DNA from: a virus
DNA length: 64,000 bases
Direction: 5' to 3' (one strand)
Virus record (IMG/VR): IMGVR_UViG_3300014501_000001
Span: 1 to 64,000 of that record
Shown here piece after piece: positions 12,072 through 29,278 of this stretch. The notes under the pieces were generated by a model. That model was given only the letters and a program-made list of their open reading frames with translations. It was not told the origin of the DNA and did not search any database. Each line of letters opens with the position of its first letter. Position 1 is the first letter of the stretch. The translations under genes and the position numbers were made by a program.

Positions 12072-12093
12072 GGGGTCCTATCCCTTGGTCCAA

Positions 12094-12170
12094 GCCCCCG
12101 GAGTGTTGACGCACTCGCGGGGGCGCCTGTCATTTACTTACAGGCTCATTTTATCCAAGGGGTCTGACAA
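12094..12170 (-). promoter_or_regulatory. RecA-NDp/PafBC-like promoter plus CGUCAA hairpin leader (copy 1)
   Basis: TTGTCAGAC-N8-TAAAAT, then GCCCCCGCGAGTG-CGTCAA-CACTCCGGGGGC. Confidence 0.6.
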
Positions 12171-12185
12171 TCCCTGCTGCCTAAG

Positions 12186-12629
12186 CTATGCAACAGCGAA
12201 ACGCACTGACTCATTTCTGACGAAGGCTATATTCAAGGAGTCGAAAACTCCCATGCGACCGAGCAACGGCATGGGGCAGGCTTCGGAGAAAAGGGCCAGT
12301 ACCTCTATCCCCTTGCCGAAAATGTGGGCGACGAGATCTGCTGCGGGTAGCTTTATCTTCTCCCCTCCAAACGCATGGGCAGCATCCTTTTTTGGCAGGT
12401 CGTCCGCCGACAAATGGAATACCTGAAGAAGTGAGGTGGGAAGAAAAGTACAGTCGGAACCCGAATCTACCAGGCAGCCGAGACGCTTATGGCCGAGAAG
12501 CCGCCCTGCTGCGTCAATGGCCGCAAACTCCACATAAATTGCTGGCTCAGGTAAGCCCGCACCAAACATAAAGCTATATGGCTCGCCGTGCGTGAACGTC
12601 AAAACGTGAGGCTTTCGGAGGCGGTCCAA
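12186..12629 (-). CDS. Retropepsin-like aspartic protease
   Basis: CLVDSGSDCTF and PLLGRMGVF motifs; lower GC. Confidence 0.8.
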   Translation of the reverse strand: MDRLRKPHVLTFTHGEPYSFMFGAGLPEPAIYVEFAAIDAAGRLLGHKRLGCLVDSGSDCTFLPTSLLQVFHLSADDLPKKDAAHAFGGEKIKLPAADLVAHIFGKGIEVLALFSEACPMPLLGRMGVFDSLNIAFVRNESVRFAVA

Positions 12630-12633
12630 TTAC

Positions 12634-12969
12634 TTACCCCGCCAGGCGCCCTGAAGATCGCACAAAGACCAGGGTAGCGCCGCGCGTCTCGTCCTCGTCA
12701 AAGTCGGTGGGCGAGCCTTCCACGGCGATTACGCGCCCGCTTGCCTCATCCAGCGCTACCCAGCGACCCCTGTATGCGGCGGCCTGCCGGGTCCGTTGCC
12801 ATGCGACCACGGGATCAGCGCTCGCAGGGGACTCATCTGGACCTGATGCTCCAGGAACGACCGTGGACCCGACGGACTCGTACGGTACAGGGCTCTGCGC
12901 CGCTTCCTGATCAGGATCAGGTTCAACAGTCGTTGACAAGAACCGGCGCGTCTTATCCTCGTCAGGCAT
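12634..12969 (-). CDS. DUF5678-like small protein
   Basis: YRGRWVAL...GRVIA motif; upstream of the retropepsin gene. Confidence 0.55.
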   Translation of the reverse strand: MPDEDKTRRFLSTTVEPDPDQEAAQSPVPYESVGSTVVPGASGPDESPASADPVVAWQRTRQAAAYRGRWVALDEASGRVIAVEGSPTDFDEDETRGATLVFVRSSGRLAG

Positions 12970-13321
12970 CTTCCCCTCCAGACGGAGTTTGGCCCGCTTC
13001 CACTTCAGGTAGCATGCGAGGCGCAAGCTGCTCTACGCTGGGAAGCGGGCCAAATTTAGACTCCCAATCCGATACAGCCTTGGTGAGCAAGTTGGCCAGT
13101 ACCTTCGCGTGCGTAGGCGAAACGAGAATCCGAACAACCGTCTGTGAAGTGAGGCGCTGATTCTCGACAGTGCTGTCAGGTGCCGGAAATGAAAGAGTGA
13201 AGGCGACAGCTAGATCCCACTGCGTCATGCCTATTTGTGCGCCGTTCACATATTGCGCAGTAGCCTCAACCGAGTCCTGGGGCGATGGCGACGTAGTCCC
13301 CCATGGCAGCGTATAAGTCAC
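12962..13321 (-). CDS. DUF3467-like protein
   Basis: YVNGAQIGMTQWDL...RILVSPTHAKVLANLL...WESKFGPL. Confidence 0.7.
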   Translation of the reverse strand: MTYTLPWGTTSPSPQDSVEATAQYVNGAQIGMTQWDLAVAFTLSFPAPDSTVENQRLTSQTVVRILVSPTHAKVLANLLTKAVSDWESKFGPLPSVEQLAPRMLPEVEAGQTPSGGEDA

Positions 13322-13575
13322 TAAGAGCCCCCTCCTGCTGATTCGGGGCTACCCTCGGCCCAGCGGATCACAGCGGCGCCCCGCCGAACGCGCGTGCGTA
13401 AGCGATCAGGCATAGGCCAAACGATACAGCTTACTCCTATGATCAGTTGATCATCTGTATCCCCTCCCTTCCACTACAGGATGGGTCTGACTCCGCGCGC
13501 CTAGATTACCCTTACTGCCGGGCGTGGGGTAATGATCAAGGAATCGTGGGGTCTAGCATGATCACCAAGCCGGCC

Positions 13576-15960
13576 TTACCGCAGGTCAGGTGAGTTTCGC
13601 CGGACCCTCCTAGTGGCTGACGGGCCTCTCATCGCCCGCTGCACGGAAACGATGGCACCGAGGCGGGAGCCGTCTTTGCCGATGATCCAGACTGTCTCGC
13701 CGTGGCCGGCTGAGCGGACCGCCTGCCGCAGGGCATCGCGCACGGGCTGCGGGGCGATCCTGTCAATGTGCAGCTCACCCGTCACGACTTCCTCGCCAGC
13801 CACCCACGGCAGCAGCCCGCTCCCGCCGCAAGGATCGTAGTTCCTCGCGGATCCGCAGTACAGGTAGTGGGTCTGCACCGTGCCGTCTTTGCGCAGCCGG
13901 AACGAGTAGCGGCAGCGGGAGCACCGGCCGCGCTTCACGGGGGCGGCACTCCCGTCCTCCGCGCCTCCGCGAGCGACAGCGCATCCACGTTAGCACCGCC
14001 TACCGCGGCTTCATGGCAGCGGTCCTTGTGGTCCTGGCCTGCGAGCCGTCCGCAGTGCGGGCACCTTTCCGTGAGGCTGGGGCAGTCGCAGGCCATCAGG
14101 CCTCCGTCTCGCGGAGTTTGCGCTCGAGCCGTTCCGCCCGGACCGGATCCGTGGTCAGCCCCGGATGGCACAGGAAGTCGCACACGTCGCTGCCTGCACC
14201 GAGCACAATGCAGTCACCGTTGCAGCCGTGGCGGCAGTCGGACGGGTCGATCAGCGGCACGATGGACGCCAGCCACTCATCGTCAGCGACCGGGGCCAGC
14301 TCGCGTGCCAGCTCGCGCCGCTCGATCCGCCGCCGCCAGCGGGTCGTGTCGTCATCCCGGCAGCACCGGCACTTGTAGCCGCCCGGTCCCCGGCAGTAGC
14401 GGCCGAGCATCTTGCGCTGGCTGACGGCCATCACGCCACCTCCAGCCTGTCAGGATGCACCCTGCCGCCTTCCAGGTAGCCACCCGGCAGGTAGTCGGCC
14501 CGCGCCTCGTCGTCCAGCAGAGCCCAGCATTCATCGCACGGGAAGTCGCGCAGGGGCCCGTGGAACACGATGAAGGACCCGAGGAACGGCAGGTCTAGGC
14601 AGACGGACGGGTTGTCCCATTCATCGCTGCCGGTCCAGATCCACAGGCGCCACCAGTGCGTGCAGGACCACGGCGGCCACCACATGAAGCGGCGGCCGAT
14701 GTTCACCTGACCGCGCGCCATCAGGGACTCATCTCCCGCGCTTCCACCACCGCGTTGTGAGCCCGGCAGGCATCCTGCGCCAGTTCCCGCGCGAACATGA
14801 CCCCGATGAAAGGATCACGCCCGGGGTCCGGCTCCGCGCCGAGCTGGGCGTAGATGGTCTGGCCGGCGCCGGGGAATCCCCGCTTGGTGCCGGTGCGCCA
14901 CGGGAGCTTCATCGCGGCGTGAGCGTCGCGGTAGTCCATGGCCATCAGATCGAGCTGTTGAAGGCCGCCACGGGAACCGGCTGCGGCACGACCAGCCTTC
15001 TCAGTGCCTCATCCAGCACGTCGTCTGACAGCGAGGGGAAGTCACCGAGGGGGACGGAGCGGAGATCCGGCAGTGCGGTCCCGATCACGGCTGCTGGTGC
15101 CACGGCTCCTCCTCGGTGCGCTCTTGCTGGCGTTCTAGTGCAGGTACACGGGCCGCAGGGTCAGTTCCTCATCGCCGCCCGGAAGCTCCTGCTCGTCCGC
15201 GACCTGGACGCCGCCCATCGTGAACAGGCCAAGCTCCGGCTCGCACGGTCGCAGCAGCGCGAGCACCGCGCCGGCAGTGCCGTGGCCGGCCGCGAACGGG
15301 ATCTCAAGGATCCCGCCGTTATAGATGATCTTCTGCCTGTCGATGGCGCTCACCCTCAGCATTCTACCGCTCACGCCCTGCTATCCCTAGTGCCTCCGGT
15401 GCTTCCTGTGCCGCCTGTTCATCATTGGCGGCTCACCCGAGCAGAAGGCCGCGTAGCCGGCACCCAGGGCGACGACAGCGGCGATGCCCAGGCGGATCAG
15501 GTGATCATGCAGCACGCGCCGATCATGGCACCTGACCGGGTTTGCACGCGGTAGCCACACCGTCACCGCTGCCACCACAGCCACATCACCGCATCGAAGG
15601 CCACGATGCCGGCCAGGGCAGCGAAGACGGCAGGGCGCAGCCACTCGTCCCGGAACTCGCGCAATGCCTTGCGGAGTGCCTTCAGGGGCTGCGGGCGCGG
15701 TGCCGGGTATCCCGCTTGCTGCGGGTGCCAGTGGCGGCCAGGGCCGGTCACGGGCTTACCTCCAGAAGTTCGCATGCCCGCAGGTAGACCGAGTGGGACA
15801 TCTCCGCGCACACGCAGGATGACGGATCCGGGCACTGGCCGTCCGGGTGCAGCGGGATGTCGAGTTCCCCCATGGCCTGCCAGAAGGCGCGGATGACGCT
15901 CTGGTCATGCGGCGGCAGGGTGTTGAGCCGGGCCGCGATGGTCGCGTTAGCGGCGCTCAC
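13576..15960 (-). CDS. Cluster of small leftward hypothetical genes (13576-13938, 14096-14431, 14431-14721, 14721-14939, 15135-15362, 15563-15751, 15748-15960)
   Basis: Coupled short ORFs, several Cys-rich. Confidence 0.5.
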
Positions 15961-16415
15961 CGGGACTCATCCCAGTCACCCTGAGCGGGCCCGCGCCACG
16001 GCTCTCCGGTCTCCACGGGGGCAACGTACTGCCGCGGCCCCTCCGTAGTCCCGGTAGCTGTCACCCTGTCAGGGACGGCGGAGAGCGTGCCAAGGTAGGC
16101 GCGGGCGACCGCAAGAGCCTGCGGAAAGCGCAAGGGGAATATGCGCGCGTCCTCAGCCTCAGCGTCCAGCCAGTCAGCGACAGCAAGGGCGGGCTCGCGG
16201 CTCCAGCCCGCGATGTGCTCGGCGTCGCGGTGGTCGGCTTTCCATTCCTTCCGGCCGCAGAACGTGACCCTGACGCGCTCCCGCAGGTGCCCGTCGTTGT
16301 GGACCGCGCAGCCCTCCGAGCCCATGCACATGTGCGCCCAGCGGCCCTGCGATGCCCCCTCGGCGCGCTCCCGGATCAGTGCTGCGGCTTCACGCAATTC
16401 GTCGGCGTCGCTCAT
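15957..16415 (-). CDS. Ead/Ea22-like protein, paralog of 6342-6758
   Basis: Shares CMGxEGCxVxNDGHLR and GRKEWKADH with the other copy. Confidence 0.6.
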   Translation of the reverse strand: MSDADELREAAALIRERAEGASQGRWAHMCMGSEGCAVHNDGHLRERVRVTFCGRKEWKADHRDAEHIAGWSREPALAVADWLDAEAEDARIFPLRFPQALAVARAYLGTLSAVPDRVTATGTTEGPRQYVAPVETGEPWRGPAQGDWDESR

Positions 16416-16799
16416 CTCTCAGCCGCCCTGTCTGCCGGGTCACTCAGGGTAATGACGTGATGCTCCACATGGGATACCACCATCACCCGCTCTGGTCCCT
16501 TGTCGGGGATGATGCGGACCGTATCCCCCTTGGTAACGGTCACGAGTGCGGCGTCTCCTTCGAGCACGCGGACGGGCTTCGCCTTTTCTGCCCAATAGTC
16601 GCTCATCGGTCCTCCCCTGCAGGTGGCTGGCCGTACAACTCCGGATGGTCGGCCATGTAGAGCGCTGAGCAGAACGGGCAGCTGACATCCTCGGCCGAGT
16701 CGGATCGCGGCTCGGCCATGCCGATCACTCCGCAGTAGGCGCGATGCCGACTTGAGCCGACTAGGTGGACGCGCTCGCTCAGCGGGTATGGCCTCGGCC

Positions 16800-16982
16800 T
16801 CATCGTTCCTCCTGTCCAGTCTCACGGGTATCCGGGGATAGCTGGGAACGGAGACGGGAGAGTGCCTCAGCGAGGATGGCGTTGACAGCCTGCCCGGTTG
16901 CCTTCGCGTGCGCGAGCAGCCATGCCCGGTCGTCAGGCGCGGGCCGGAAGCACACGGGGCGCTCGGCGTGACGGTCAGGCAT
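16800..16982 (-). CDS. Ribbon-helix-helix DNA-binding protein
   Basis: PVCFRP...AWLLAHAKATGQAVNAILAEAL. Confidence 0.65.
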   Translation of the reverse strand: MPDRHAERPVCFRPAPDDRAWLLAHAKATGQAVNAILAEALSRLRSQLSPDTRETGQEER

Positions 16983-17245
16983 CAGGAAATCCCGAGCAGT
17001 CCCGCCAGCGGGTCCGAGCGCCGCTTGGCCACGAACATGGCGCAGACCTGGATGCCCGTGAGGAACCCAACAATCCCTTCCTTGGTGACGAACTTGAGGA
17101 TCTGGCCGTTCCAGCCGACGATCCACTGCTCTCCGAGCGGCTCAGTCGGCAGCACGTACTCGATGAGGCCACCGTCCTGGTAAGCCTTCAGGTCTTCGTA
17201 GATCCGCTCGTCTGTTACTTCTGGAGGATCGGCAGTGACGTCCAT
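16982..17245 (-). CDS. Hypothetical protein coupled to the RHH gene
   Basis: RBS GAGGGAG; TGATG overlap. Confidence 0.6.
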   Translation of the reverse strand: MDVTADPPEVTDERIYEDLKAYQDGGLIEYVLPTEPLGEQWIVGWNGQILKFVTKEGIVGFLTGIQVCAMFVAKRRSDPLAGLLGIS

Positions 17246-17264
17246 CTCGTGTCTCCCTCGCTAG

Positions 17265-17305
17265 GTGGTAGACCCCACGCTAGTCCCGTGGTCTACCACT
17301 GTCAA
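17265..17305 (-). promoter_or_regulatory. Promoter with overlapping inverted-repeat operator
   Basis: TTGACA-N17-TAGCGT; GTGGTAGACC(17265-74)/GGTCTACCAC(17290-99). Confidence 0.7.
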
Positions 17306-17339
17306 GCCGGGCCGCCGTACCTGTGCCCGTACACCTCCG

Positions 17340-18092
17340 TCAGGCAGCGGGGAAGTTGAGATGGGCCGCCGCTCCCCAGCAAGCAAAGGCTGCCGCGTCG
17401 TAGGCCCGTGCAGCATCTTCCTCGTTGCTGAACCAGCCGAGGTACTGATCAGGCTCGTAATCCACGGGGCATATCAGCGCGCGCCATCGCTTCTGGGTGC
17501 TGTGCCAGGACACACCCCGGAACCGCGAGGTCTTGCCGCGCCGTAGCCGCTGGTTTCGCGACTGCTGTGATTGCGTCGCCCACCGGCAGTTCCCTGGTTC
17601 GTAGCTGCCGTCATTATCGAGGCGGTCGATGGAGGTTCCTTGCGGGCGCGCGCCCATGTCCGCATAGAAGTTTTCAAAACTGGTGAGCCAGCGTTCGCAG
17701 ACGGTGATCCCGCGACCCCCATAGTCGTCCCACCCTGGATTCTTAGGGTCAATACAACGGCGCTTCATGGACATCCACGACCGGTATTCCGGCGAATCCG
17801 TCATGCCGTGCTTTGGGTGCGCCCCCGTCAGCACGATCTCCGGGTCGCCGTGCTTGCGCCAGCGCGCATAGTGCGTTCCGCACAGCCCTCGCGCAACGGC
17901 GTCCTTGCCGCATCCGTCGAATGTGCATGTGGGGATGTGCTCGCCGCGCACGCGCTCCGCTGGCCCAGGATCACCGTGATCACGAAGGCGCCGGAGATGC
18001 ATGTTGCAGTACCCGCGCCCCTTGTGCTTGCGGTCGCATCCTTCGACGCTGCATTTACGCTCAGCCGGGGTATCGTCTCGGGCTAGGGTCAT
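17340..18092 (-). CDS. HNH-family endonuclease with AP2 domain and N-terminal Cys/His repeats
   Basis: YGGRGITVCERW, SIDRLDNDGSYEPGNCRWAT, SRFRGVSW...YLGWFSNEEDAARAYD. Confidence 0.9.
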   Translation of the reverse strand: MTLARDDTPAERKCSVEGCDRKHKGRGYCNMHLRRLRDHGDPGPAERVRGEHIPTCTFDGCGKDAVARGLCGTHYARWRKHGDPEIVLTGAHPKHGMTDSPEYRSWMSMKRRCIDPKNPGWDDYGGRGITVCERWLTSFENFYADMGARPQGTSIDRLDNDGSYEPGNCRWATQSQQSRNQRLRRGKTSRFRGVSWHSTQKRWRALICPVDYEPDQYLGWFSNEEDAARAYDAAAFACWGAAAHLNFPAA

Positions 18093-18119
18093 TTCCAGCT
18101 CCCACTGGTAGTGATCTCA

Positions 18120-18171
18120 GGCCCCGTTTGGTGTTGACGCACCGGACGGGGCCGCTTGCCCTGCAATTCTA
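18120..18171 (-). promoter_or_regulatory. -10 box plus CGUCAA hairpin leader (copy 2)
   Basis: TAGAAT, then GGCCCCGTCCGGTG-CGTCAA-CACCAAACGGGGCC. Confidence 0.6.
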
Positions 18172-18196
18172 CTCGCCTGACCTCGGGTAATGCCGC

Positions 18197-18937
18197 TTAG
18201 TCGTCATCGGGAGCGAGGGAATATCTATAAGAGACGACCCTATCCGGCGGCATGGCCGATTCGGTGTACAGCAGCGGGCCGTCGTCATCGGAGAAGATCG
18301 CCACTGGCGCGAGGATGGGCGACCCGATCCGCAGCCGCAGGTGGTCAGCTTCACGTCCATCGGCAGCCCGGCCTCGCAGGTGCTCCTCGACGTAGGTTGC
18401 CCTGCGCCGCGTGGCCCGCTCGATGAAGGCCAGGACGCCGCCGGCGACCGGCAGCGGTGCGAGCAGCGACCCCGCGTCCATCTGGCCCATGCCCGGTATC
18501 CAGTCCACGGTCAGCCGCACGGGCCGGTTCTCCTGTGACCCGACTTCCTCGCGGCGGATCACTAGGCCGCCCGGCGTGATCCCCAGCAACTCGGACACGT
18601 AGACCGGGGGCACCTGGATTGCCGCACCCGTGACCACGACCGTCTCCCCGGTGAGTTGCGACGCCGAGCGGGCCATGTCCAGCCGCTCGCGGGCTGTCGG
18701 CGCTATCACGTCGTTGCCCGCGGCGAACGTTCCCTGCGGCGAGGTCCACACCGCGCCCTCCACCTGCAGCTGCCCGATGGCCTTCGCCGCGGTCGCGCTT
18801 GAAACTCCCCAGTCCTTCGCCAGCGTGAGCACCGAGGGAAGCTGAGCGCCCGGCGGGAGTTCCCCGGACAGGATGAGCGCGCGGTAGTGGTTTGCAAGCT
18901 GCACGTAGAGCGGGGGCGGTCGCTCAGGCTGCGGCAC
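18197..18937 (-). CDS. GntR/UTRA regulator (KorSA/TraR-like)
   Basis: PLYVQLANHYRALILSGELPPGAQLPS HTH plus UTRA-like C-terminus; divergent from the transfer-like operon. Confidence 0.8.
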   Translation of the reverse strand: MPQPERPPPLYVQLANHYRALILSGELPPGAQLPSVLTLAKDWGVSSATAAKAIGQLQVEGAVWTSPQGTFAAGNDVIAPTARERLDMARSASQLTGETVVVTGAAIQVPPVYVSELLGITPGGLVIRREEVGSQENRPVRLTVDWIPGMGQMDAGSLLAPLPVAGGVLAFIERATRRRATYVEEHLRGRAADGREADHLRLRIGSPILAPVAIFSDDDGPLLYTESAMPPDRVVSYRYSLAPDDD

Positions 18938-19116
18938 TCCCGGCCTCCCCGCAATGTCGTGTCCTATGTGGCGGCAGGCTATCAGCGTGATAATCCGCGC
19001 GGTCAGTCTCCCGGCACCCATGCTAGTACGCGATTGCCACTTGCACTATGGCACACATTTGCGTATGGTCGCACTGACAGCACCCGGATTTGCTGACAGG
19101 GCCAAGAGGAGCGCGC

Positions 19117-19308
19117 ATGCCGACCTACAGCCGCCGCATAGCGACGCGCATAACCCCGGACGCCGACAACCGGCTCCGGCTGGCCGCCGTCGTCCTGCGC
19201 ATGCCGCTGTCGGCGCTCCTCACGCTCGCCATCGACAAGCAGCTTCCCCCGGCTGCCGAACTGGCCGCATCCCTGCGGGACGACGCAGATGAGGCGGTGG
19301 CGTCATGA
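19117..19308 (+). CDS. Small RHH-like protein
   Basis: RIATRITPDADNRLRLAA...LSALL. Confidence 0.55.
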   Translation: MPTYSRRIATRITPDADNRLRLAAVVLRMPLSALLTLAIDKQLPPAAELAASLRDDADEAVAS

Positions 19309-19621
19309 GCCGCTACGAGTCAGGTGCCCCGATGATCAGCGGTCCTCCACGCCGCAGGGCGCGGATCTGGGCGTGCGGCATCTGCGCTAAGCGGAAGTGG
19401 GCAGTGCGCCAGCCCCAGTGCCCGCGATGCCGCGTCCTGATGGAGGCCGAGTCATGACCACCGACACTGCCGCTTGCGCCTACCTCGCCGAGACCGCTAA
19501 GGCATACGCCGAGTATGAGGCCGAGATCACCAGGGCGACGGCGGGGGCCGGCGCCCGGTGGCACGAGAAGCTCGGCGCCGCAGCGCGCCGGCTCGAACAA
19601 GCAACTAACGGGGGAACCACC

Positions 19622-20152
19622 ATGACCGCACCCACTACCCGCACCCTGGCCGCTACCGCTGCCTGCGCCACTCTCATCGCCGCTTCCGTAGCCTGCGCCG
19701 CCATTCCGGCGTCAGCTTCCGCGCAGGCTCCCCGCTGCCGCACAGGGCAGGTAGCCGTCACCCTTGAGCACCCCGTCCGGCAGGGCGGCAACCAGGGCTG
19801 GACGATCGGGCTCCAGGACAAGGGCAACGCCGCCTGCACCGTCCACGGCTACCCGCGACTGGGGCTGGAGGGACGCCACGGCCAGCGCCTCCGCAGCACC
19901 ACGCAGGACGGCCCCACGTACTTCCACGGCGACCCCGGCCCGTCCTCGGTGCTCTTGCAGCCCGGCGGATTCGCTGTCGCGTGGCTGGCCTACGGGACCG
20001 TCAGCGGGCCCGGGAACGTCCGTGCCCATTCCCTCACCGTCCGCACCGAGGGAGCGGCATCGCACAAGACTGACGTACTCGCCAGCCGGTCCGTCACCAT
20101 CACGCGCGGAATGCTCGACGTGACCGCGTGGGCACCGAGAGGGAAGGGCTAG
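19622..20152 (+). CDS. Secreted DUF4232-like protein
   Basis: Signal peptide; C...CTVHGYP...VLLQPGG; the frame is also open from 19454. Confidence 0.7.
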   Translation: MTAPTTRTLAATAACATLIAASVACAAIPASASAQAPRCRTGQVAVTLEHPVRQGGNQGWTIGLQDKGNAACTVHGYPRLGLEGRHGQRLRSTTQDGPTYFHGDPGPSSVLLQPGGFAVAWLAYGTVSGPGNVRAHSLTVRTEGAASHKTDVLASRSVTITRGMLDVTAWAPRGKG

Positions 20153-20154
20153 CG

Positions 20155-20463
20155 ATGACCGCGCCCCTGCGCTTCGCTGCCGCCATTCCTGGCTGGCACA
20201 ATGCCGCAGCCTGCCGTCACGCGGACCCTGGCCTGTTCTTCGGCCCGGACGGCGAGAGCGACGATGGCCGCAGCCGCCGCGAGAGGCGGGCCGGCCACAT
20301 CTGCGCCGGCTGCCCGGTCCGCGCTGCCTGCGCCCAGTGGGCCGATGAGCACCAGCCCCGCGCCGGCATCTGGGCAGGCGTCAGCCACGACCGCTGGACG
20401 GCCGAGCACCGCCGGGAGAACGACCGTGCGCGGAAAGCCCGGCAGCGCGAGGTGGCGGCATGA
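20155..20463 (+). CDS. whiB: WhiB-family Fe-S transcription factor
   Basis: WHNAAAC...DPGLFF...ICAGCPVRAAC...GIWAG. Confidence 0.9.
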   Translation: MTAPLRFAAAIPGWHNAAACRHADPGLFFGPDGESDDGRSRRERRAGHICAGCPVRAACAQWADEHQPRAGIWAGVSHDRWTAEHRRENDRARKARQREVAA

Positions 20464-20897
20464 AGGCGTCATCGAAACTGGGTGCCGCAGCCGTCGCGTT
20501 CGTCGTGATGGCAGGCGTGAGCCACGGCAAGCACGGGCACCTCGGGCTGGGATCGCTGGATTCCTTCGGCGCTACGCCTGTTGGCTCCAGCACGTCCAGC
20601 GCTAACGAGCGGCTCGCCATGCACATGGCTAAGGACGCGGGCTGGCCGCGCTCGCAGCGCCGCTGCCTGGACTGGCTGTGGACCCGCGAGAGCGGATTCC
20701 AGATGGTGTGGAACACCGCAGGCAGCGGTGCCTACGGAATCCCGCAGGCGCTGCCCGCCTCGAAGATGGCGAGCGCCGGATCCGACTACATGACCAACCC
20801 GGCTACGGACATCAGATGGGGCCTGTCTTACGTGACCGGCCGCTACGGAGATGCCTGCCGTGCCTGGCAGCACGAGGAAGCCAACTCCTGGTACTGA
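20460..20897 (+). CDS. Lytic transglycosylase (SLT-like)
   Basis: CLDWLWTRESG...SGAYGIPQALP...TNPATDIRWGLSYVTGRYG. Confidence 0.9.
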   Translation: MKASSKLGAAAVAFVVMAGVSHGKHGHLGLGSLDSFGATPVGSSTSSANERLAMHMAKDAGWPRSQRRCLDWLWTRESGFQMVWNTAGSGAYGIPQALPASKMASAGSDYMTNPATDIRWGLSYVTGRYGDACRAWQHEEANSWY

Positions 20898-20937
20898 GCG
20901 GATCGCCCGCCCGGACCTAACCCGAGAGGAAAGCACG

Positions 20938-22725
20938 ATGAAGCCCGACAAGTTCGCACTCACCGCCGAACTCCACCGCACGCACTCGCTGCTGCACGGC
21001 AACGCGCTCCAGCACCAGATCGGCATCAGCACGACGGCGAACGAGATGACCGTGGTCATCATGATCGCGATCGTGCTCGTGGTAGTCGGCATCGCCGCCG
21101 CGCTGATCAAGGCCCTCTGACCGCGCTGACCCGTAACCACCGGAAGGGAGTCCCGCAATGGCCGCCAGCCTCAGGGAGCGCGCCCAGCGCCGCTCAGCCG
21201 AGGTCTACCAGGCTGCCATCAGGGACGCCCTGGCCGAGGGGAATGGGCGGCAGGCGCTGCACCTCGCGATCCGGGCGCTCCTGTCCGAGTCCGCGAAGAT
21301 CCGGCGCCGCCGCCCCGCCAGCGCATCGCTGGCGGATGCGGAACTGGCCGGTTCGATCGCGGCAATCGCCGCCGGGCTGCACGCCTACAAGCCCCGCAAG
21401 CCGGCCGGGTGCACGAGGGTGCCGGGACCGCACCACCTGCTGTCCGTGTACGAGGCCAGCCTTGAGCAGGCCGAGGGAGCAAGCCATGAGTGAACCGGGA
21501 GTTATCCTGCGATTGCACCGGGGAGGCGACGATGACGGCGCGTTCCCCGACGCTGAGGCACCCGCCGAGGCTCCCCGGGACACCGCAGCCGGCGGCGCGC
21601 TCGTGACCCTCAGCGGAGGCCAGATGGCCCTGCCCGATCAGGCGAAGGCTGCGCTCGCGCATGCCTTGCGGGCGGCACTGAGGCGGGCGAAGGACCTGTC
21701 CGAGCGCGAGGGCGGCATCGTCCACGGGCTGATCAATGCGAAGCCGCCATCGGTCGGGGACCAGCACCGCTACTCCGCGTCCCGCGCATGGGTTCCGCCA
21801 GGTCACGACAACGGGATCGCCGAGAGGGCAGGCGTGATCTATCACCTGCTGATCGGCCGGCCCGGCGTCGCGCTCGGGAACACCATCTCGGCGCTGGCGT
21901 CCCGCCCCCTGCGGTTCTTCCTGGCGCTGGGCGTCATCGCCATCGCAATCATCGTCGTTCTTTTCGCAGCCTGAGAGCAGGACCCATGCACGGCATCCAC
22001 GGATTCCCGGTGGCCCTCGCCGCCATCACGTTCTCGATTGCAGCGGGCCTGTGGAGCTACAGAAAGCTTCACCGCGTCACGGCGTGGGGCTTCGGCCTCG
22101 CCGCGTTCTTCCTGGCCGCTGGCCTGACGCCGTGGACCGACGCCCTGGCATCGCTGGTTGCTACGGGTGCCGGGATCACGGTCCTGGTGATCGTGGCCAT
22201 CGTCGGGGGCTTCGGGTTCCACTTCGAGGCCATCCTCAAGCACCAGCACCACCGCATCCGGACCCCGGTCATCGCCGTGACCTTCGGGACCGCGATCGTG
22301 CTGACCATCGGCAGCCTGTCCCGGCTGCTCCGCAAGGCCGCGGAAAGCCCGTCTAAGACCAGTGATGCGCTCGGCTCGGCCATCTCCCGCATCCAGTCGG
22401 GAAAGGCCGCTCACGCCGTGCCTGCGGGTCACGGGCTGTTCGTCCTCGCCATCGGTGCCGCCGTCCTGATGGCCCTGATCATGTTCGGCCACAAGATGGA
22501 GAACCGCCGGAAGGGCGGCGGCAGGGGCATGATCCCGGCTGCTGCCCGTCCCGCAGGGCGCCCGGCCCTTCCCGCTGGCAGGGGGCGCCGGCCATGAAAT
22601 CCGACCTGATCCTGCTCGGCGCGGGAGCAGTTGCCCTGCTCGGCTGGTACCTGCGCTGCAAGTCGTGGGAGCGCGAGGAAGACGCATACGCCGCTGAGGA
22701 CGAATACGAGGATCACCTGTCATGA
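20938..22725 (+). CDS. Small and membrane proteins upstream of FtsK (20938-21120, 21158-21493, 21486-21974, 21986-22597 multi-TM, 22594-22725)
   Basis: Hydrophobic segments, coupled starts; Spd-like context. Confidence 0.6.
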
Positions 22726-24770
22726 ACGAGTCCCGGCAGCCCGGCGAGCTGCGCGCCGTCGTCCGCGCCCACGATGCCATCCTCGCGCCGTATGCCTGGA
22801 TGCTCGCGGTGGACGCGGTGGCGCTGTTCGCCCGCTACGGCGTGCGCGGCTCCACTGCGCCCATCACGGATGCATGGTGGACCGTGCTGCTCGCCGCTGC
22901 CGCTGCCGGGATCTGGATCCTGCGGGCGCGCAAAGCCCGGCCGTTCCGCTTCATGACCGCCGTCATCTTCCGCCATCCGCTGCCCGCCCCGGCGCGCAAG
23001 CACGGCACCCGCTACGCCGCCTGGTGCTGGGGACTGGGCACGCTGTGGGCGCTCGTGTCGGTCACGTGGTCGCCCGGCTGGCTGATGCAGGCCATCCTCA
23101 TCATCGGCGGCACCTGCCTCGCCGCCCCGCACCTGTACCGCAGCCGCGTCAGCCATTCCGGCCCGCGCATCCTCGGCGGTCACCTGATGGGCGATGACGA
23201 CCCGGAGCCCGCTCACGTCGAGGACATGGAAGTCACCCAGACGGGACCCTATGACAGCCCGGTAGTGGGCGAGACCGTGACACCGGAGCCCGGCACGTAC
23301 GCCGCTCCCGGCTCGTCCGTGCTGCGGCCCGGCGCGAAGCCGAAGGGACGCACCGCGGCCAATGACGCCGCCCGCGAGGCCCTGGCCCGGGTTCTGTCGG
23401 ACTTCGCCGTCGATGCCGAGGTGACCGGCTTCACGCGCGGCCCGACCGTGACCCGCTACCAGATCGAGATCGGCAGCGGCACGAAGGTGGAGGCGGTCCT
23501 GCGGCTGCTGAAGAACATCTGCTACGCCCTCGGAACCGAGTCTGTGCGGATGCTCGCCCCCGTCCCCGGCATGTCCGCGATCGGCGTCGAGGTGCCGAAC
23601 GCGGACCCGGAAGTGGTCTCCCTCGGCGATGTCCTGCGCTCCCCGGCGGCGGCGAAGGACCGGCACCCGCTGACGGTCGCCCTCGGCGTGGACGTGGAAG
23701 GCCGGCCCGTGCTCGCCTGCCTCGCGAAGATGCCCCACGTTTTGATTGCGGGCGCCACTGGCAGCGGAAAAAGTACCTGCGTAAACAGCCTGATCACGTC
23801 GGTGCTGATCCGCGCCACCCCGGACGAGGTGCGGATGCTCCTGATCGACCCCAAGCGCGTCGAGCTGGCCGCCTACCGCGGCATCCCGCACCTGATCACG
23901 CCCATCGTCACAAGCCCGCAGAAAGCCGCCGAGGCCCTCCAGTGGGTCACGGGCGAGATGGAGCGCCGCTACGACGACATGGCCGCGTTCGGAGTCAAGC
24001 ACATCGACGACTTCAACCTCAATGCCGCCGCCGGGAAGCTGATCCGCCACGGCGAGCACTCGGCCGCCCTGCCGTACCCATACCTGCTGGTGGTCGTGGA
24101 CGAGCTGGCCGACCTGATGATGGTCGCCCCCCGCGATGTTGAGGACTCGGTAGTGCGCATCACGCAGCTAGCCCGCGCCGCCGGCATCCACCTCGTGCTG
24201 GCCACGCAGCGGCCCTCGGTAGACGTGGTGACCGGGCTGATCAAGGCCAACATCCCGTCGCGGCTGGCGTTCATGACGGCGAGCCTGACGGACTCCCGCG
24301 TGATCCTGGACATGCCGGGAGCGGAGAAGCTGATCGGCCAGGGTGACGCGCTGTTCGTCCCCATCGGCGCCTCCCGCCCGATCCGCATCCAGGGCGCCTA
24401 CGTGTCCGACCCGGACATCGCCGCCGTGGTCCGCCAGTGCCGCCAGCAGAACGGGCCGCACCTCGCGTCAGGCCCGGAGCCCGCGCCCGTGGTGATCAAC
24501 CCCACGGTAACGATCGCCCCTTCCGATGACGGCGATGACGCGGAACTGATCGTGCAGGCCGCCGAGCTCGTGATCCGCACGCAGTTCGGCTCCACGTCGA
24601 TGCTCCAGCGGAAGCTTCGCCTCGGGTTCGCCCGCGCGGGCCGCGTCATGGACCTGCTCGAAAACCGGGGCATCGTCGGCCCCAGCGAGGGATCGAAGGC
24701 CAGGGACGTCCTGGTCGGACCTGACGGGATGGACGCGGCACTAGCCGCGCTGAGCACGGAGGCAAGCTGA
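22722..24770 (+). CDS. ftsK: FtsK/SpoIIIE (TraB-like) DNA translocase with N-terminal TM segments and gamma domain
   Basis: [23 protein letters not shown]; gamma domain [22 protein letters not shown]. Confidence 0.92.
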
Positions 24771-25718
24771 TGGGGATCTTCAAGCGGGGCTTCGGCCGGG
24801 CGTCTAACGCCGCCAAGTCGGCGATCTCGCGCACCGACTGGCACCCCGATGGCAATGGCGTGTTCGAGGGCTACGACCGCACCGCCGACATCGTGGCCGG
24901 CGACGCCTGGAGCATCTGCTTCGCGCGTGACGATAAGCCCGGCTCGCTGATCACTGTCACGTTCTACCCGGTCGAGTATGACGAGAGCCCGGGCGAGTTC
25001 GTGGTTCAGCGCGAGGTCGAGTGGATGGTCTGCGAGAACCCGGCCGACCCCGGCGGCACCGAGGTCTGGTCAGACGCCTTCACGGACGACCCGATGCCGG
25101 AAACGTGGGCATCGGCAGCAGAGGCGGAAGCTGACTGCCGGTCGGCTGCCGAGGATGCGCTCGGCGTTGCCTGGGCGTACGGCACCTGGGACGGCGAGCC
25201 TGAGTGGAACGCGGAGGCAGTCTGATGACCACTCCCCCGACCGGACCCACGCCCCCTCGAATTCGCACCCAACGTGCCTATACGCACACCCGTAACACCC
25301 GTATACGCGCCCGCGCGCGAGAAATGAGCCCGTCATGACCCGGATACTCGCCATGCTGGTGCCGGCGGTTGCCATAGCGGCGCTGCCCTGGCGCTTCGCC
25401 CTGCTGATCGCCGGCGGCATCGCCCTGCTTGCCGCCCTCGTCGCGGTGGGATCCAGTACGCGCCGGACCGGCGCGGTGATCGTGGCAGCCCTGGCGGTCG
25501 CGGCGCTCACCGCCGGGCGGGACGCCTTCGACGCCAGCCACATCGGCGCTCCCATCCACGCCTGGACCGCCAGCTACCACTGCCCGGCCAAGAGGCAGAC
25601 GCTCTCCACCAACGACTGGGTGAAAGCCCCGAACCCGAACGTCCAGTACTACTACAACGGCTGGCAGGACCTGATCGGCTGCCAGGAGAGCATCCAGCTA
25701 GGTATCGGCTCCCGCTAA
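24770..25718 (+). CDS. Acidic hypothetical protein (24770-25225) and membrane protein (25335-25718)
   Basis: ORFs; TM segments in the second. Confidence 0.55.
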
Positions 25719-25781
25719 GCGGGTAGCGCGGCACGGACGGAAATGCAGCGATTGATCAAGCTACGCACGGAGGATGACCAG

Positions 25782-26957
25782 ATGACCGCAATCCCGTGGG
25801 AAGCGCCCGCCGCGCTCGGCGCAGGCGCGGTCCTGCTGCTGTCGCTGCCCCGTGCTGTCCGCTCGCTGCGCCCCGGTCGCCGGCAGCGCAAGGCCAGCGA
25901 CTGGACCCGGCCGCAGCGGTTTCTGGCTGGCGTCCTGATCGTGCTCGGCGTCGGGATCACGATCCCGGCCTTCACTGAGATCTACCTTACGGTCACGCAC
26001 CTGATCCGCCCGGCGTTCGGCGCCTGGTCGTGGACGGTCCCGGTGTCCGGGGAGATTGCGTTCACTTACCTGTTCCTCAATGGCGTGCTGCTGGCGATGC
26101 GCCGGGCACCCGCCGGGGCGCTGCGCAGCATGCTCATCGCCGTGATCATCGCCGGCTCGGTGATCCTCAACATCTGGGCTTACCTCGGCTCGGTGCCCGC
26201 CATCACGGGTCACCTGATCGTCGTCGCCGCGTTCTTCGGCGTGCTGCTGGCCGGCAAGGAAACGGTGATGACCCTGCGCGGCGGCAAGGTCCGCGCGGAC
26301 CGGATCACCGCGTCCGCGTGGATCGCTCACCCGCTGCACTCGGCGCGGCTGTGGCGGTGGATGGCGACCTGGGGCGAGCCGTCCCGCGCCGTGGCGCACG
26401 CCCGGTACATGCGGCTGCTGTTCGCCATCACGATCGCGCAGGCAGACGACCGGATCGGCAGCCAGCGGCGGCGCTGGCGCCGCAATCTTCCGGAGATCCT
26501 GCGCTACCAGATAGCCATGGGGGAACTGCCGGATCCGCCGAGGTACGGCGACTGGCAGGAGGCACTGGCGGGACACGTCACGGCGCAGCTTGAGAGGCTC
26601 CCTGCGGCGCAGTCCGGTGACACCGATGAGCGCAGCGGCGGTGACACGGAAAGTGGCAGCGGTGGTGACAGCGATCGGCGCAGGCAGGATGACAGCGAGC
26701 GTGGCACGCGCCGGCGCAATGACAGTGACACCGCGCGTGACAGCTGGCCCGAGACCAAGGACGTGGACCCGGCGGTCATGCGCCGCATGATCCGCACGGC
26801 CATCGGCCGCTACGAGCGGGAACACGAGGGTGCCCGCGTGCCCGACGCGAAGCTAGAGGAACTCATCCAGGTCCGCATGAGCCGGGTGACGGCCAAGAAG
26901 CTGCTGACCGCCGCGTATGGCGCCGAGGGCGCTAGGCAGCGCGCCGGGGCAAGGTAG
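25782..26957 (+). CDS. DUF2637/SpdB-like membrane protein
   Basis: Four to five TM segments, WTVPVSGE, WIAHPLHSARLWRWM motif, low-complexity linker. Confidence 0.7.
   Translation: MTAIPWEAPAALGAGAVLLLSLPRAVRSLRPGRRQRKASDWTRPQRFLAGVLIVLGVGITIPAFTEIYLTVTHLIRPAFGAWSWTVPVSGEIAFTYLFLNGVLLAMRRAPAGALRSMLIAVIIAGSVILNIWAYLGSVPAITGHLIVVAAFFGVLLAGKETVMTLRGGKVRADRITASAWIAHPLHSARLWRWMATWGEPSRAVAHARYMRLLFAITIAQADDRIGSQRRRWRRNLPEILRYQIAMGELPDPPRYGDWQEALAGHVTAQLERLPAAQSGDTDERSGGDTESGSGGDSDRRRQDDSERGTRRRNDSDTARDSWPETKDVDPAVMRRMIRTAIGRYEREHEGARVPDAKLEELIQVRMSRVTAKKLLTAAYGAEGARQRAGAR
26617..26744 (+). repeat. TGACA/TGGCA repeats on a 12-bp lattice
   Basis: TGACA at 26618, 26642, 26666, 26690, 26720, 26726, 26738; TGGCA at 26654, 26702. 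Confidence 0.7.
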
Positions 26958-27015
26958 TGCCCGTTCCTCTGCCGGGATACCCGGGCACTCACTGATTGCG
27001 GGAGGATGAACGACC

Positions 27016-27537
27016 ATGGCCCTCTATGACATCGCGGTAGGAGACGGGCAGCAGCTGGAGCGAGGCGCCATCCTGCTGACGATCCTCGGCAATCCGACCG
27101 TCAAGCGGTTCCGTGACGCCTGGACGGAGAAGGGCAGCGACGGAGAGCCGGTGATCGCGATCTACACCCGGCAGGGCGGCGGCTACCGCGAGTGCTACTG
27201 CGACACCGTGGACATGCTGGCTTCCAGCACGCATAACCCGGAGGGCTGCAACGCCGCGTGCAATACTGCTCTCGCCGCGCATCCGCTGTACCTGCGGGAT
27301 GCTGACGACGACTTTGACCGGACTTACGCCACGTTCTACTTCCGCGTGCCGCCTGAGTACCGTGATGCTCTCGCTGCCAGCGCGGTTGACCCGGTGAACA
27401 TGTCCGAGGTCTGGCAGCAGGAGATCGACCGCATCGGCAGCGGCGAGATGAGGCCGGCCGAGGTCGCGCTAGGTGATCAGCTAGGCGCGTTCCTGTCCGA
27501 CCCGGCGCCAGACGGCCCGAGGATCATGGAGGTTTAA
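27016..27537 (+). CDS. Conserved phage hypothetical protein
   Basis: RFRDAW...IYTRQGGGYRE...DDDFDRTYATFYF. Confidence 0.7.
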   Translation: MALYDIAVGDGQQLERGAILLTILGNPTVKRFRDAWTEKGSDGEPVIAIYTRQGGGYRECYCDTVDMLASSTHNPEGCNAACNTALAAHPLYLRDADDDFDRTYATFYFRVPPEYRDALAASAVDPVNMSEVWQQEIDRIGSGEMRPAEVALGDQLGAFLSDPAPDGPRIMEV

Positions 27538-27614
27538 CCCTCCGCGCTTGGCTAGTCGCTCTCCGTGTTGCACACTAGGGCCATCCAATCCCGCGAGGTC
27601 TCAGGGGTGACGGC

Positions 27615-28622
27615 ATGGCGGATCGCGGAAACTACTGGCAGACCTCGTTTCAGGCCAGTGATAGCTTCCGCGAACGGCAGCGGATAAACGGGCACCAGCC
27701 CGCGAGGACCGTGCCGGTGCAGGCTGATGAGGCGGGCCCGCATCGCTGCGAGCGGCGGGAATGGTGCGCCTCCGGTGAGCGCACCGAGCGCGAGGACGGC
27801 AGCCACGGCAGGATGCCCGCGCTGACGCCGCAGCCGTTCTGTGATGCGGACGAGTCGATCATCTACGCCTGCCTGGAGGAACTCGCCGGCCTGCACTCCC
27901 GTCTCGCCGCCGCCATGCTGTCCGGAGTGACCGGCGAAGTCCTGATCCGGCTCCCGTTCGGCCCCTCTGTGCCGCTCCGGGTGGACATTGACGAGCTGCA
28001 GCGGTTGCTAGTCGAGACGGCCCTGTCGTGGCATGAGCGCGTCGCCACGTCCGACCGGCTGTCGGTGATTGACACGCAGGCCACGCATAAGCAGGCGCTC
28101 GGCGCGCGGTCCGGAAAGATGCTGGCGCACTCATCCGACGTGCTGAAAGAGCATCTGGGCACGCTGCTGTACCTAGCTCCCGGCGTGATGACCCGCATTC
28201 CGTCGCCGCTGATGGCCGCGATCACGCCAGACGCGCCTGTAGTCGGCCAGGGCGCCGGCGGCACCGTGCTGGTGATGCTGTCGGGCGCCGACGCGGGCAA
28301 CGAGATCATGCGGCTGGAGTACGCCGGGCGAGCCACGCTGCTGGAGACCGACCCGGCACCGGAGAAGCTTCTAGGCGTCCAGTGCCGCTCGTGCGAGCGC
28401 CGGTCACTGCGCCGGGCAGCGCGGCCCCAGCACGACGGCGACCCCGTGTACGCCTCGGAGTGCGCCGACTGCGGGCATCTCATGACTCCGCTTGAGTACA
28501 AGCAGTGGACCGCGATGAACGCCCGTTACTGGCGGCTGCGCGTGACCCCGGCTCAACTCGCGGCCAAGGCTTCTATCAGCGAGGATGCCGCCGCGCGGCT
28601 CATGGCCGCAGTCGTTGCGTAA
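27615..28622 (+). CDS. Hypothetical protein with C-terminal Zn ribbon (possible late regulator)
   Basis: CRSC...CADCG; followed by HTH genes. Confidence 0.6.
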   Translation: MADRGNYWQTSFQASDSFRERQRINGHQPARTVPVQADEAGPHRCERREWCASGERTEREDGSHGRMPALTPQPFCDADESIIYACLEELAGLHSRLAAAMLSGVTGEVLIRLPFGPSVPLRVDIDELQRLLVETALSWHERVATSDRLSVIDTQATHKQALGARSGKMLAHSSDVLKEHLGTLLYLAPGVMTRIPSPLMAAITPDAPVVGQGAGGTVLVMLSGADAGNEIMRLEYAGRATLLETDPAPEKLLGVQCRSCERRSLRRAARPQHDGDPVYASECADCGHLMTPLEYKQWTAMNARYWRLRVTPAQLAAKASISEDAAARLMAAVVA

Positions 28623-28635
28623 CCCGCTCCTGCGA

Positions 28636-28711
28636 TAGAATATGTCCCGCGGCCTGCGTCAACAGGCCCGGGACGTCGGCCACTGCTAAACCCTTTGCGA
28701 GGAGCAGCGAC
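28636..28711 (+). promoter_or_regulatory. -10 box plus CGUCAA hairpin leader (copy 3)
   Basis: TAGAAT, then GTCCCGCGGCCTG-CGTCAA-CAGGCCCGGGAC; RBS GAGGAG. Confidence 0.6.
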
Positions 28712-29278
28712 ATGGGACAGGTTACCGTCCGGCCGGATGGGCTCATAACGTCCGCGCAAGCGGCCGAACTCTGCGGCGTCAGCGTCAAGACGATCTATGC
28801 CTGGGCGCACAGCGGACTCCTGCCGGTGAAGCGCTCCAGTCAGCGCAGGATCCTGCTCAACCTGCTTGACGTGCTGCGAGCGGATAACGCGACCCGGAAG
28901 GCTGCCCGGCGTACAGCCGTTACCTATCCGGCGTGGGAAATCGACGGCGAACCGGATACGGACTACGCGGCAATCCTCCGCGCCTGCCGTGACGGTGCAG
29001 CTAGCACTCCCGTCCTACGGCAGTCGGTGGTTTACTACCTGCGGTTCGCGGATCGCATCAAGATAGGAACCTCAACCCGTTATCTTGCTCGCATGCGCGA
29101 GTTGCCTAAGGATGAGCTTCTAGTGACCGAACCCGGTGGTGACGATCTGGAGCGAGCGCGCCACCGCCAGTTCGCCGCATTGAGGATCCGGGGGGAATGG
29201 TTCCGCGCGGAAGCGCCGCTGCTGGCTCACATCGTCAGACTGCGCGCCGACCTTGCCCCGGCTATACCTGACATGTAA
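28712..29278 (+). CDS. MerR/Xis-type HTH fused to GIY-YIG (T5orf172-like) domain
   Basis: AAELCGVSVKTIYAW; VVYYLRFADRIKIGTS...E...HRQF...GEWF. Confidence 0.8.
   Translation: MGQVTVRPDGLITSAQAAELCGVSVKTIYAWAHSGLLPVKRSSQRRILLNLLDVLRADNATRKAARRTAVTYPAWEIDGEPDTDYAAILRACRDGAASTPVLRQSVVYYLRFADRIKIGTSTRYLARMRELPKDELLVTEPGGDDLERARHRQFAALRIRGEWFRAEAPLLAHIVRLRADLAPAIPDM

Follow-up and report, generated by a model that had tools for sequence, protein, structure and literature searches.

The DNA analysed here, referred to as the window, is a stretch of 64,000 nucleotides (nt) that corresponds to positions 1–64,000 of the 113,096-base-pair (bp) IMG/VR virus record IMGVR_UViG_3300014501_000001; feature coordinates are positions in this window unless they are given as genome positions. 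The record is a complete virus genome with direct terminal repeats and a G+C content of 68%. Our subject is a short RNA leader which occurs three times in the window, each time immediately in front of a protein-coding gene, and an earlier note on this DNA had described the three as hairpins of one build, with a TA(A/G)AAT box, stems of different sequence that nevertheless pair, and a CGUCAA loop. The three sites, designated W1, W2 and W3, read as described. The genes behind them are a DDE transposase of 367 amino acids (10968..12071, minus strand; Pfam DDE_Tnp_1 at 3e-23 together with DUF772, and PHROG transposase families), an HNH endonuclease of 250 amino acids with a C-terminal AP2 domain (17340..18092, minus strand; Pfam AP2 and the PHROG HNH families phrog_374, 3377 and 953, with E values down to 1e-47), and a protein of 188 amino acids that combines a MerR-type helix-turn-helix (HTH) with a GIY-YIG-like T5orf172/MUG113 domain (28712..29278, plus strand; Pfam HTH_17, MerR, MUG113 and T5orf172, and PHROG families). 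The Pfam and PHROG assignments thus agree with the gene types named in the earlier note.

What the three hairpins have in common is an exact core of ten bases, TGCGTCAACA, made up of the six-base loop CGUCAA and its closing pairs U-A and G-C. The window holds three copies of this 10-mer and the rest of the genome none, each copy being part of such a hairpin, while about 0.1–0.2 copies would be expected by chance. The outer stems of W1, W2 and W3 differ in sequence, yet all of them pair; they are GC-rich and carry either a single bulged C or a 2 × 2 internal loop. In W1, hairpin 1 (12094..12124, minus strand) consists of a 7-bp outer stem, a bulged C and a 5-bp inner stem, with its loop at 12111-12106, and the −10-like box TAAAAT (12148..12153, minus strand) lies 23 nt upstream of the stem. 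Hairpin 1 of W2 (18120..18153, minus strand; loop at 18139-18134) has an 8-bp outer stem, the 2 × 2 internal loop and a 4-bp inner stem; its box TAGAAT (18166..18171, minus strand) is 13 nt upstream, and the TAG of this box is at the same time the stop codon of the upstream GntR-family gene. W3 is on the plus strand, where the box TAGAAT (28636..28641), 14 nt past the stop codon of the upstream gene, is followed after only 2 nt by hairpin 1 (28644..28674; loop at 28657-28662) with a 6-bp outer stem, a bulged C and a 6-bp inner stem. Hexamers of the form TA(A/G)AAT number just 12 on both strands of the whole genome, and five of the 12 precede a hairpin leader of this build.

Between the core and the ATG there are 32 nt in W1, 39 nt in W2 and 47 nt in W3, and in all three leaders the strong hairpin 1 is followed by a weak hairpin 2 around the Shine-Dalgarno sequence or the AUG. 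In W1 this second hairpin (12066..12092, minus strand) takes in the AUG (12071-12069) and part of the ribosome-binding site, and the minimum free energy and centroid structures agree on it. In W2 (18095..18108, minus strand) the Shine-Dalgarno sequence is in the hairpin loop of the centroid structure, and in W3 (28683..28707, plus strand) it is overlapped by the 3′ arm. Hairpin 2 is marginally stable in W1 and W2. Compared with dinucleotide shuffles, the three leaders fold with z-scores of −2.9, −2.6 and −2.1.

Two more leaders of the same architecture, with other loops, are present outside the window. The fourth leader (genome 64599-64680, plus strand; locus L502:599-680) precedes an HNH endonuclease gene of the PHROG family phrog_374, and the fifth (genome 82204-82125, minus strand; locus L503:2204-2125) precedes a NUMOD4-HNH_3 endonuclease gene. 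In both, the box is followed by a stem interrupted by a bulged C; beyond a linker come a second hairpin, with the Shine-Dalgarno sequence inside it, and then the ATG. The loop of the stem is the six-base CAGCCA in one and has nine bases in the other. With these included, hairpin 2 takes in the Shine-Dalgarno sequence and/or the AUG in all five leaders of the genome, and four of the five stand directly before a homing-endonuclease-type gene of the HNH or GIY-YIG type. The covariance model R1 gives W1 47.5 bits, W2 37.7 bits and W3 35.5 bits, a model which is dominated by the loop and misses the two variant-loop leaders. Towards the right end of the genome, two other open reading frames (ORFs) with an HNH domain are located within operons; the region upstream of the one of 244 amino acids at 111.6 kb was inspected and has no such leader, the check being confined to this ORF and the other one being 702 amino acids long, at 109.1 kb. 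A genome-wide hairpin census was also tried as a detector and was found not to discriminate, as there are 796 strong hairpins in this genome of 68% GC.

Relatives of the hairpin were collected by exact-pattern scans of IMG/VR and of bacterial genomes, keyed on the loop sequence. A scan of IMG/VR with the −10 box and the core returned seven high-GC contigs with the same architecture, and two scans that left out the box, each combining the core with another inner stem, yielded 66 loci in one case and, among the matches listed, more than 120 in the other. After filtering for long hairpins, there were 129 occurrences in contigs with a G+C content of at least 0.5. In total, non-redundant hairpins with the CGUCAA loop number well over 100, including 105 copies in viral contigs.

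Several controls, taken together, indicate that the hairpin has been selected as a structure. The exact 16-mer around the loop is found at 66 viral loci, about nine times as many as the seven found with a permuted loop on the same inner stem, and none of these seven control loci has a long stem. When only the flanks were shuffled, z fell below −2 in 58% of the occurrences at a GC of at least 0.5, compared to 14% of the low-GC chance hits. Covariation was scored in an ungapped alignment of 105 sequences and 11 pairs, anchored on the loop. The stem pairs are formed in 73.9% of the cells, changes on both sides are seen at all 11 of them, and the covariation score of 0.365 is not reached by any of 500 shuffles (0.152 in shuffles); every slid register of the alignment scores lower than the true one. 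Fitting the alignment to a covariance model built from the 105 sequences raised these values to 79.4% paired and a score of 0.414. The hairpin is kept by selection as a structure. It does not belong to a known Rfam family, a match to which would have spoken against the proposal of the earlier note: a search with Rfam 15 gave no match in the whole window at gathering scores, none at the three sites even at E ≤ 10, and none at the hairpins of 25 related loci.

The position of the hairpin relative to genes is just as regular. In 68 of the 105 non-redundant viral copies a co-oriented ORF starts 25–59 nt past the core, and 50 of these 68 starts have a good Shine-Dalgarno sequence; a second spacing group, at 90–125 nt, is made up of leaders of DNA adenine methylase (Dam methylase) genes. 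The genes behind the hairpins are mostly HNH-type nucleases and Dam methylases. By Pfam, and with families that overlap and should not be summed, the 105 members are followed by HNH_3 in 18 cases, D12 adenine methylase in 14, HNH in nine, HNH_5 in nine, NUMOD4 in six, Endonuclease_7, zf-His_Me_endon and AP2 in four each, GIY-YIG and T5orf172/MUG113 in two each, and a DDE transposase and an antirepressor in one each. The co-oriented neighbours on the upstream side are ordinary backbone genes such as portal (five cases), large terminase, Rz and capsid; at most 5 of 103 of them carry an HNH-type domain, and no methylase is among the 25 families listed for these neighbours. The enrichment before nuclease-type genes, the lack of which would have told against the earlier proposal, is therefore clear in comparison with the upstream neighbours, and backbone genes in front with nucleases behind make the picture expected of free-standing homing-type cassettes that sit beside conserved genes. 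The sequence around the stem shows some regularities as well. Within 20 nt upstream of the stem TANNNT is about three-fold enriched, most strongly at a distance of 6 nt, the bases directly before the stem are A-rich, and a short linker U-(G/A)-(A/G)-C-C follows the stem in 16% of the copies against a background of 2.3%.

The leader also travels. One subtype, type a, which includes W1, keeps the stem sequence in addition to the loop: about 29 consecutive nt of the W1 hairpin are identical to hairpins in two unrelated contigs (L169 and L171), and the 18 type-a leaders head genes of 11 different BLASTP protein clusters, with a hairpin 2 that covaries around the ribosome-binding site. W2 has a near-twin (L216) which differs at 3 nt, in the internal loop, and precedes an unrelated gene. 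In another subtype, the type-b leaders, both the A-rich internal loop and the linker after the stem are conserved. As near-identical hairpins head unrelated genes, the leader is portable: it is modular and spreads horizontally between unrelated phages. The exact 16-mer with a long stem occurs in genomes of Nocardia, Streptomyces, Kitasatospora, Clavibacter, Microbacterium, Rathayibacter, Burkholderiales and Rhizobiales. There are cultured carriers, too. In Rhodococcus phage REQ2 the hairpin is flanked by attP/integrase on one side and by the HTH gene gp37 on the other; Gordonia phage ODay has it before gene 19, and the cassette is also present in the only relative of ODay; in the Pseudomonas phages Lodos and Meadow, it forms the 5′ part of a leader of about 145 nt of a DNA adenine methylase gene. 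The suggestion of the earlier note that this is a portable cis-regulatory RNA is supported by the recurrence of the element, with covarying stems, in prophage-bearing genomes and in unrelated viral contigs that number more than 100, and further by the fixed distance to co-oriented starts, the gene enrichment and the spread over 11 protein clusters.

Some copies are part of larger units. A longer conserved leader of about 110–145 nt, with the hairpin as its 5′ part, lies between lysis genes and the D12 DNA adenine methylase gene at L241:7735-7900 and L516:1501-1650 (Lodos), and again in L196, L234, L270, L278, L289 and L298; it may be a larger structured RNA. In Clostridium species (L310, L314, L369, L401, L410, L413, L417 and L421, the last with two copies) and in Paenibacillus (L303, L319 and L388), the exact hairpin core is held in a conserved unit of about 110 nt with an extended −10 promoter upstream, a T-run terminator downstream and no ORF. 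Rfam has no match for this unit, which, judging by these features, looks like an unannotated small RNA. Two tandem hairpins about 35 nt apart precede one small ORF in Kitasatospora (L296:8180-8266 and L302:3128-3211), and a prophage-like contig (L203:4102-4316) has a C4 antisense RNA with its a1/b1 target (RF01695, RF03163) about 800 nt upstream of its copy of the hairpin.

It is worth asking how constant the loop really is. Its invariance in the large set proves nothing, because the set was collected by loop sequence. A less biased sample was obtained by aligning the NUMOD4-HNH proteins behind six copies and fetching 80 homologue loci. Many of these have no leader at all; those with a leader show a −10 box, 6–7 nt, the long hairpin, a linker, a short hairpin, the Shine-Dalgarno sequence and the AUG, in this order. 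CGUCAA is the loop in five homologue loci, one of them with different closing pairs, and the other loops are CGCCAA, CGACAA, CUGCAA, GUGCAA, CAGCAA, CGGGAA and GUGGAA, plus a few unrelated ones. CGUCAA is thus the modal loop of a 6-nt set that mostly ends in AA, and the earlier idea of CGUCAA as the defining constant has to be given up, as homologous HNH leaders and two leaders of the same genome carry other loops. We also looked at what the loop could pair with. Some leaders have a loop-complementary segment near the ribosome site, but this segment pairs locally in hairpin 2 and is unchanged where the loop differs, so that a kissing loop-loop arrangement is not seen and was ruled out; the W1–W3 leaders have no complement to the loop in them. 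A pseudoknot of the loop with the linker after the stem was set aside on steric grounds, which we take to hold for a stem of 10–14 bp.

What, then, does the leader do? We consider it moderately probable that it is a cis-acting 5′ leader, with its own promoter, a 5′ stem-loop and a weak hairpin over the ribosome site, that tunes the expression of the gene behind it, and it probably controls how much is made of enzymes that are risky to have. This view of its function draws on the precedent of the homing-endonuclease leaders of T-even phages (PMC2988022) and on the known protection by 5′-terminal stem-loops. Each copy would be the 5′ leader of a self-contained gene cassette. A −10 box of the sigma-A type would start the transcript at hairpin 1 or a few bases before it, and hairpin 1 would then shield or insulate the 5′ end of an mRNA that is poorly translated. 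After the short linker, the weaker hairpin that holds the ribosome-binding site and/or the AUG would throttle translation by limiting the access of ribosomes. The joint effect would be to keep homing nucleases, transposase and methylases at a low level, uncoupled from the neighbouring phage genes. The five leaders of one architecture in this genome, all of them before selfish genes, speak in favour of this.

A number of observations weigh against the tuning leader, beginning with the fact that we infer the promoter, the start site and the function alike. The −10-like box noted earlier is there at all three window sites, but a TANNNT is nearby in just about one-third of the copies collected without requiring a box, and a simple sigma-70 scan found no −35/−10 pair at the three window sites. 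The second hairpin is weak in W1, W2 and W3. Hairpin 1, for its part, also stands before non-nuclease genes, and in Clostridium it is found inside the small-RNA-like unit. The opposite strand folds slightly better in 120 of 148 copies, by a difference of 2.4 kcal/mol of which 1.3 come from the constant loop; a count of G-U against A-C pairs as a mark of the transcribed strand is confounded by the conserved A-rich internal-loop bases and by an extra U-G pair in the antisense loop. At least five A are present in the 8 nt before the stem in 35 of 147 copies, which amounts to a U-tract on the opposite strand. Finally, a pure stabiliser role would leave unexplained why one loop recurs across phyla, and why whole stems are conserved in some subtypes.

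The recurring loop leads to the alternative that fares best, in which the hairpin serves as the operator of an RNA-binding factor that acts in trans, reads the loop and, given the spread of hosts, would be host-encoded. Such a factor could act as a translation switch, as Com does on the Mu mom mRNA, or by antitermination, as N does on boxB. We regard this as unlikely, though it does have several observations on its side. The ten-base core is identical in three different stems of one genome, the motif outnumbers the permuted loop as described above, the hairpin sits close to the promoter, and type-b leaders keep the A-rich internal loop and the linker after the stem. Even the loop variants of the homologous leaders keep the form of six bases with mostly an AA end, many of them with a GNRA-like run, and one variant contains what we take to be the pentaloop sequence of P22 boxB. 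Against an operator stand the unrelated loops in two of the five leaders of this phage, with which a phage-encoded factor that reads CGUCAA could not serve all five and is thus improbable, and the fact that homologous HNH genes tolerate at least nine different loops. The loop invariance in the large set, as already pointed out, is a product of how the set was collected. No boxA-like element is conserved in the alignments, no N-like gene turned up (none was searched for), and no candidate binding protein was identified. If the shared loop does have a binding partner, it would be a new piece of host-parasite RNA biology. A broader form of the idea, to which we give about the same small weight, is a horizontally mobile plug-in leader that works across phyla and whose loop is recognised by some conserved component of the cell, for instance the ribosome, a ribonuclease, or RNA polymerase together with Nus factors. 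If so, putting a gene behind the hairpin would be enough to give it a set pattern of expression in hosts from Actinomycetota to Proteobacteria and Clostridia, whether it encodes a selfish nuclease, a methylase or a small RNA.

It is more doubtful still that the hairpin serves mainly as a transcription boundary, acting as a terminator or a roadblock, in part against transcription of the opposite strand, and insulating the cassette and its neighbours from read-through; its position before a gene start would then be secondary. The hairpins do follow immediately on the stop codon of the gene in front of them, the antisense strand gives the somewhat more stable fold, a U-tract on the sense strand is present in 8 of 147 copies in addition to those on the opposite strand, and some of the matches in low-GC genomes are canonical T-run terminators. 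However, a U-tract is absent from both sides of the hairpin in W1, W2 and W3 and is lacking in most other copies too, and a scan for intrinsic, Rho-independent terminators found nothing at the three window sites. Mycobacterial RNA polymerase is reported to need a U-tract at intrinsic terminators, which also counts against this explanation. Nor would a terminator account for the tight spacing to a co-oriented start preceded by a Shine-Dalgarno sequence, or for the conserved hairpin 2.

The last alternative, a DNA-level site in hairpin or cruciform form for the capture or exchange of selfish cassettes, comparable to attC in integrons and already raised in the earlier note as a recombination or mobility site, is very improbable: many different cassettes do have a variable stem with a shared loop at their 5′ border, hairpins that are almost identical head unrelated genes and the cassettes adjoin conserved backbone genes, but no matching site was found at the 3′ border, nor were flanking repeats or an associated recombinase, the orientation is locked to the ribosome-binding site and AUG of the gene, and homing endonucleases need no such site, as they are known to spread by cutting the neighbouring gene, after which repair copies them in (PMC2988022).

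A few features of the surroundings should be recorded. W1 was considered as the end of an insertion sequence and ruled out as such, since no pair of terminal inverted repeats brackets 10968-12153. W2 (18120-18153) and W3 (28644-28674) form the outer ends of a plasmid-type block with GntR and TraB/Spd-like genes (18197-28622); both point outward from it, with a nuclease gene behind each. The DNA at 13418-14445 is about 75% identical to FtsK/TraB genes of plasmids of Micromonospora, Verrucosispora and Streptosporangium, and a separate FtsK-like ORF of 682 amino acids is found at 22722-24770. The stretch from 12 to 14 kb has a G+C content of 0.61, compared to 0.68 in the rest of the genome. A hairpin-forming sequence of about 48 nt at genome 1-70 recurs at 113,000-113,096, which fits a direct terminal repeat. 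A megablast search against phages for close relatives of this phage gave no match, and locus searches with single proteins, using the two upstream genes, found no relatives either and hence no empty-site allele.

Few mobile genes are as common in phages as homing endonucleases and the methylases that spread in the same way, and almost nothing is known outside the T4 group of how such genes are kept from harming their carrier. The leader described here is a widespread module of defined sequence with more than 100 natural variants and compensatory changes in the stem. It is directly testable, because it is present in phages that can be cultivated, such as Rhodococcus phage REQ2, Gordonia phage ODay and Pseudomonas phage Lodos. 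For the annotation of high-GC phage genomes, the module is a useful marker of free-standing mobile cassettes, and it may also serve as a compact expression part in actinobacterial genetics.

Among known systems, stem-loops that stabilise an mRNA at its 5′ end, as in the ompA, T4 gene 32, ermC and aprE leaders, resemble the leader in that a strong stem-loop stands at the inferred transcript start or only a few bases from it, where it would be expected to block RNases that depend on the 5′ end, such as RNase E and RNase J. They differ in that they are not known to have a conserved loop, to spread horizontally or to be tied to one class of genes. The boxB hairpins of lambdoid nut sites share the position close to a promoter, the varying stem and the short purine-rich loop that is kept; here, in contrast, a six-base loop with another kind of closure takes the place of the boxB pentaloop of GNRA-like fold, the stems are 10–14 bp long where that of boxB is short, loops differ within one genome, and the element heads single-gene cassettes, whereas boxB heads long early operons.

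The closest parallel is found in the T-even phages, where homing-endonuclease genes have their own promoters and stable, regulatory leader hairpins (PMC2988022). The T-even-type examples are I-TevI, I-TevII, I-TevIII, segB and mobE of Aeh1, along with seg43(25) of Aeromonas phage 25, in which a very stable hairpin lies just upstream of an uncovered ribosome-binding site (PMC2988022). In both groups a stable hairpin is found in the short leader of HNH or GIY-YIG genes, whether these are free-standing or intron-borne, with a dedicated promoter adjoining, a putative one in the present leaders, and the ribosome-binding site in or beside the hairpin, and the role would be to restrain a risky nuclease. 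A large share of the 105 family members precede genes of the HNH, GIY-YIG or endonuclease VII type, just as the T-even leaders do, and the seg43(25) hairpin resembles hairpin 1 in leaving the ribosome-binding site uncovered. The differences are nonetheless considerable. The leader belongs to another sequence family and to phages of other hosts, namely high-GC Actinomycetota and Proteobacteria; its promoter-like box is 2–23 nt upstream of the stem rather than embedded in the hairpin, where its transcripts would be without the inhibitory 5′ arm, and only W3 has a predicted start inside the outer stem; the strong hairpin 1 is clear of the ribosome-binding site; and the module, common to unrelated phages, is found as well in front of a DDE transposase, Dam methylases and other genes. 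The literature that we searched for the motif sequence and for leader hairpins of homing endonucleases holds no description of this element, and a 50-bp motif of Gordonia phage Vardy is something different, a leaderless-promoter repeat. Leader hairpins that restrain homing-endonuclease genes are a known kind, of which this appears to be an undescribed family, one that is found in high-GC hosts, has its putative promoter upstream of the hairpin and a loop that is common across phyla, and reaches to Dam methylases, a transposase and other genes.

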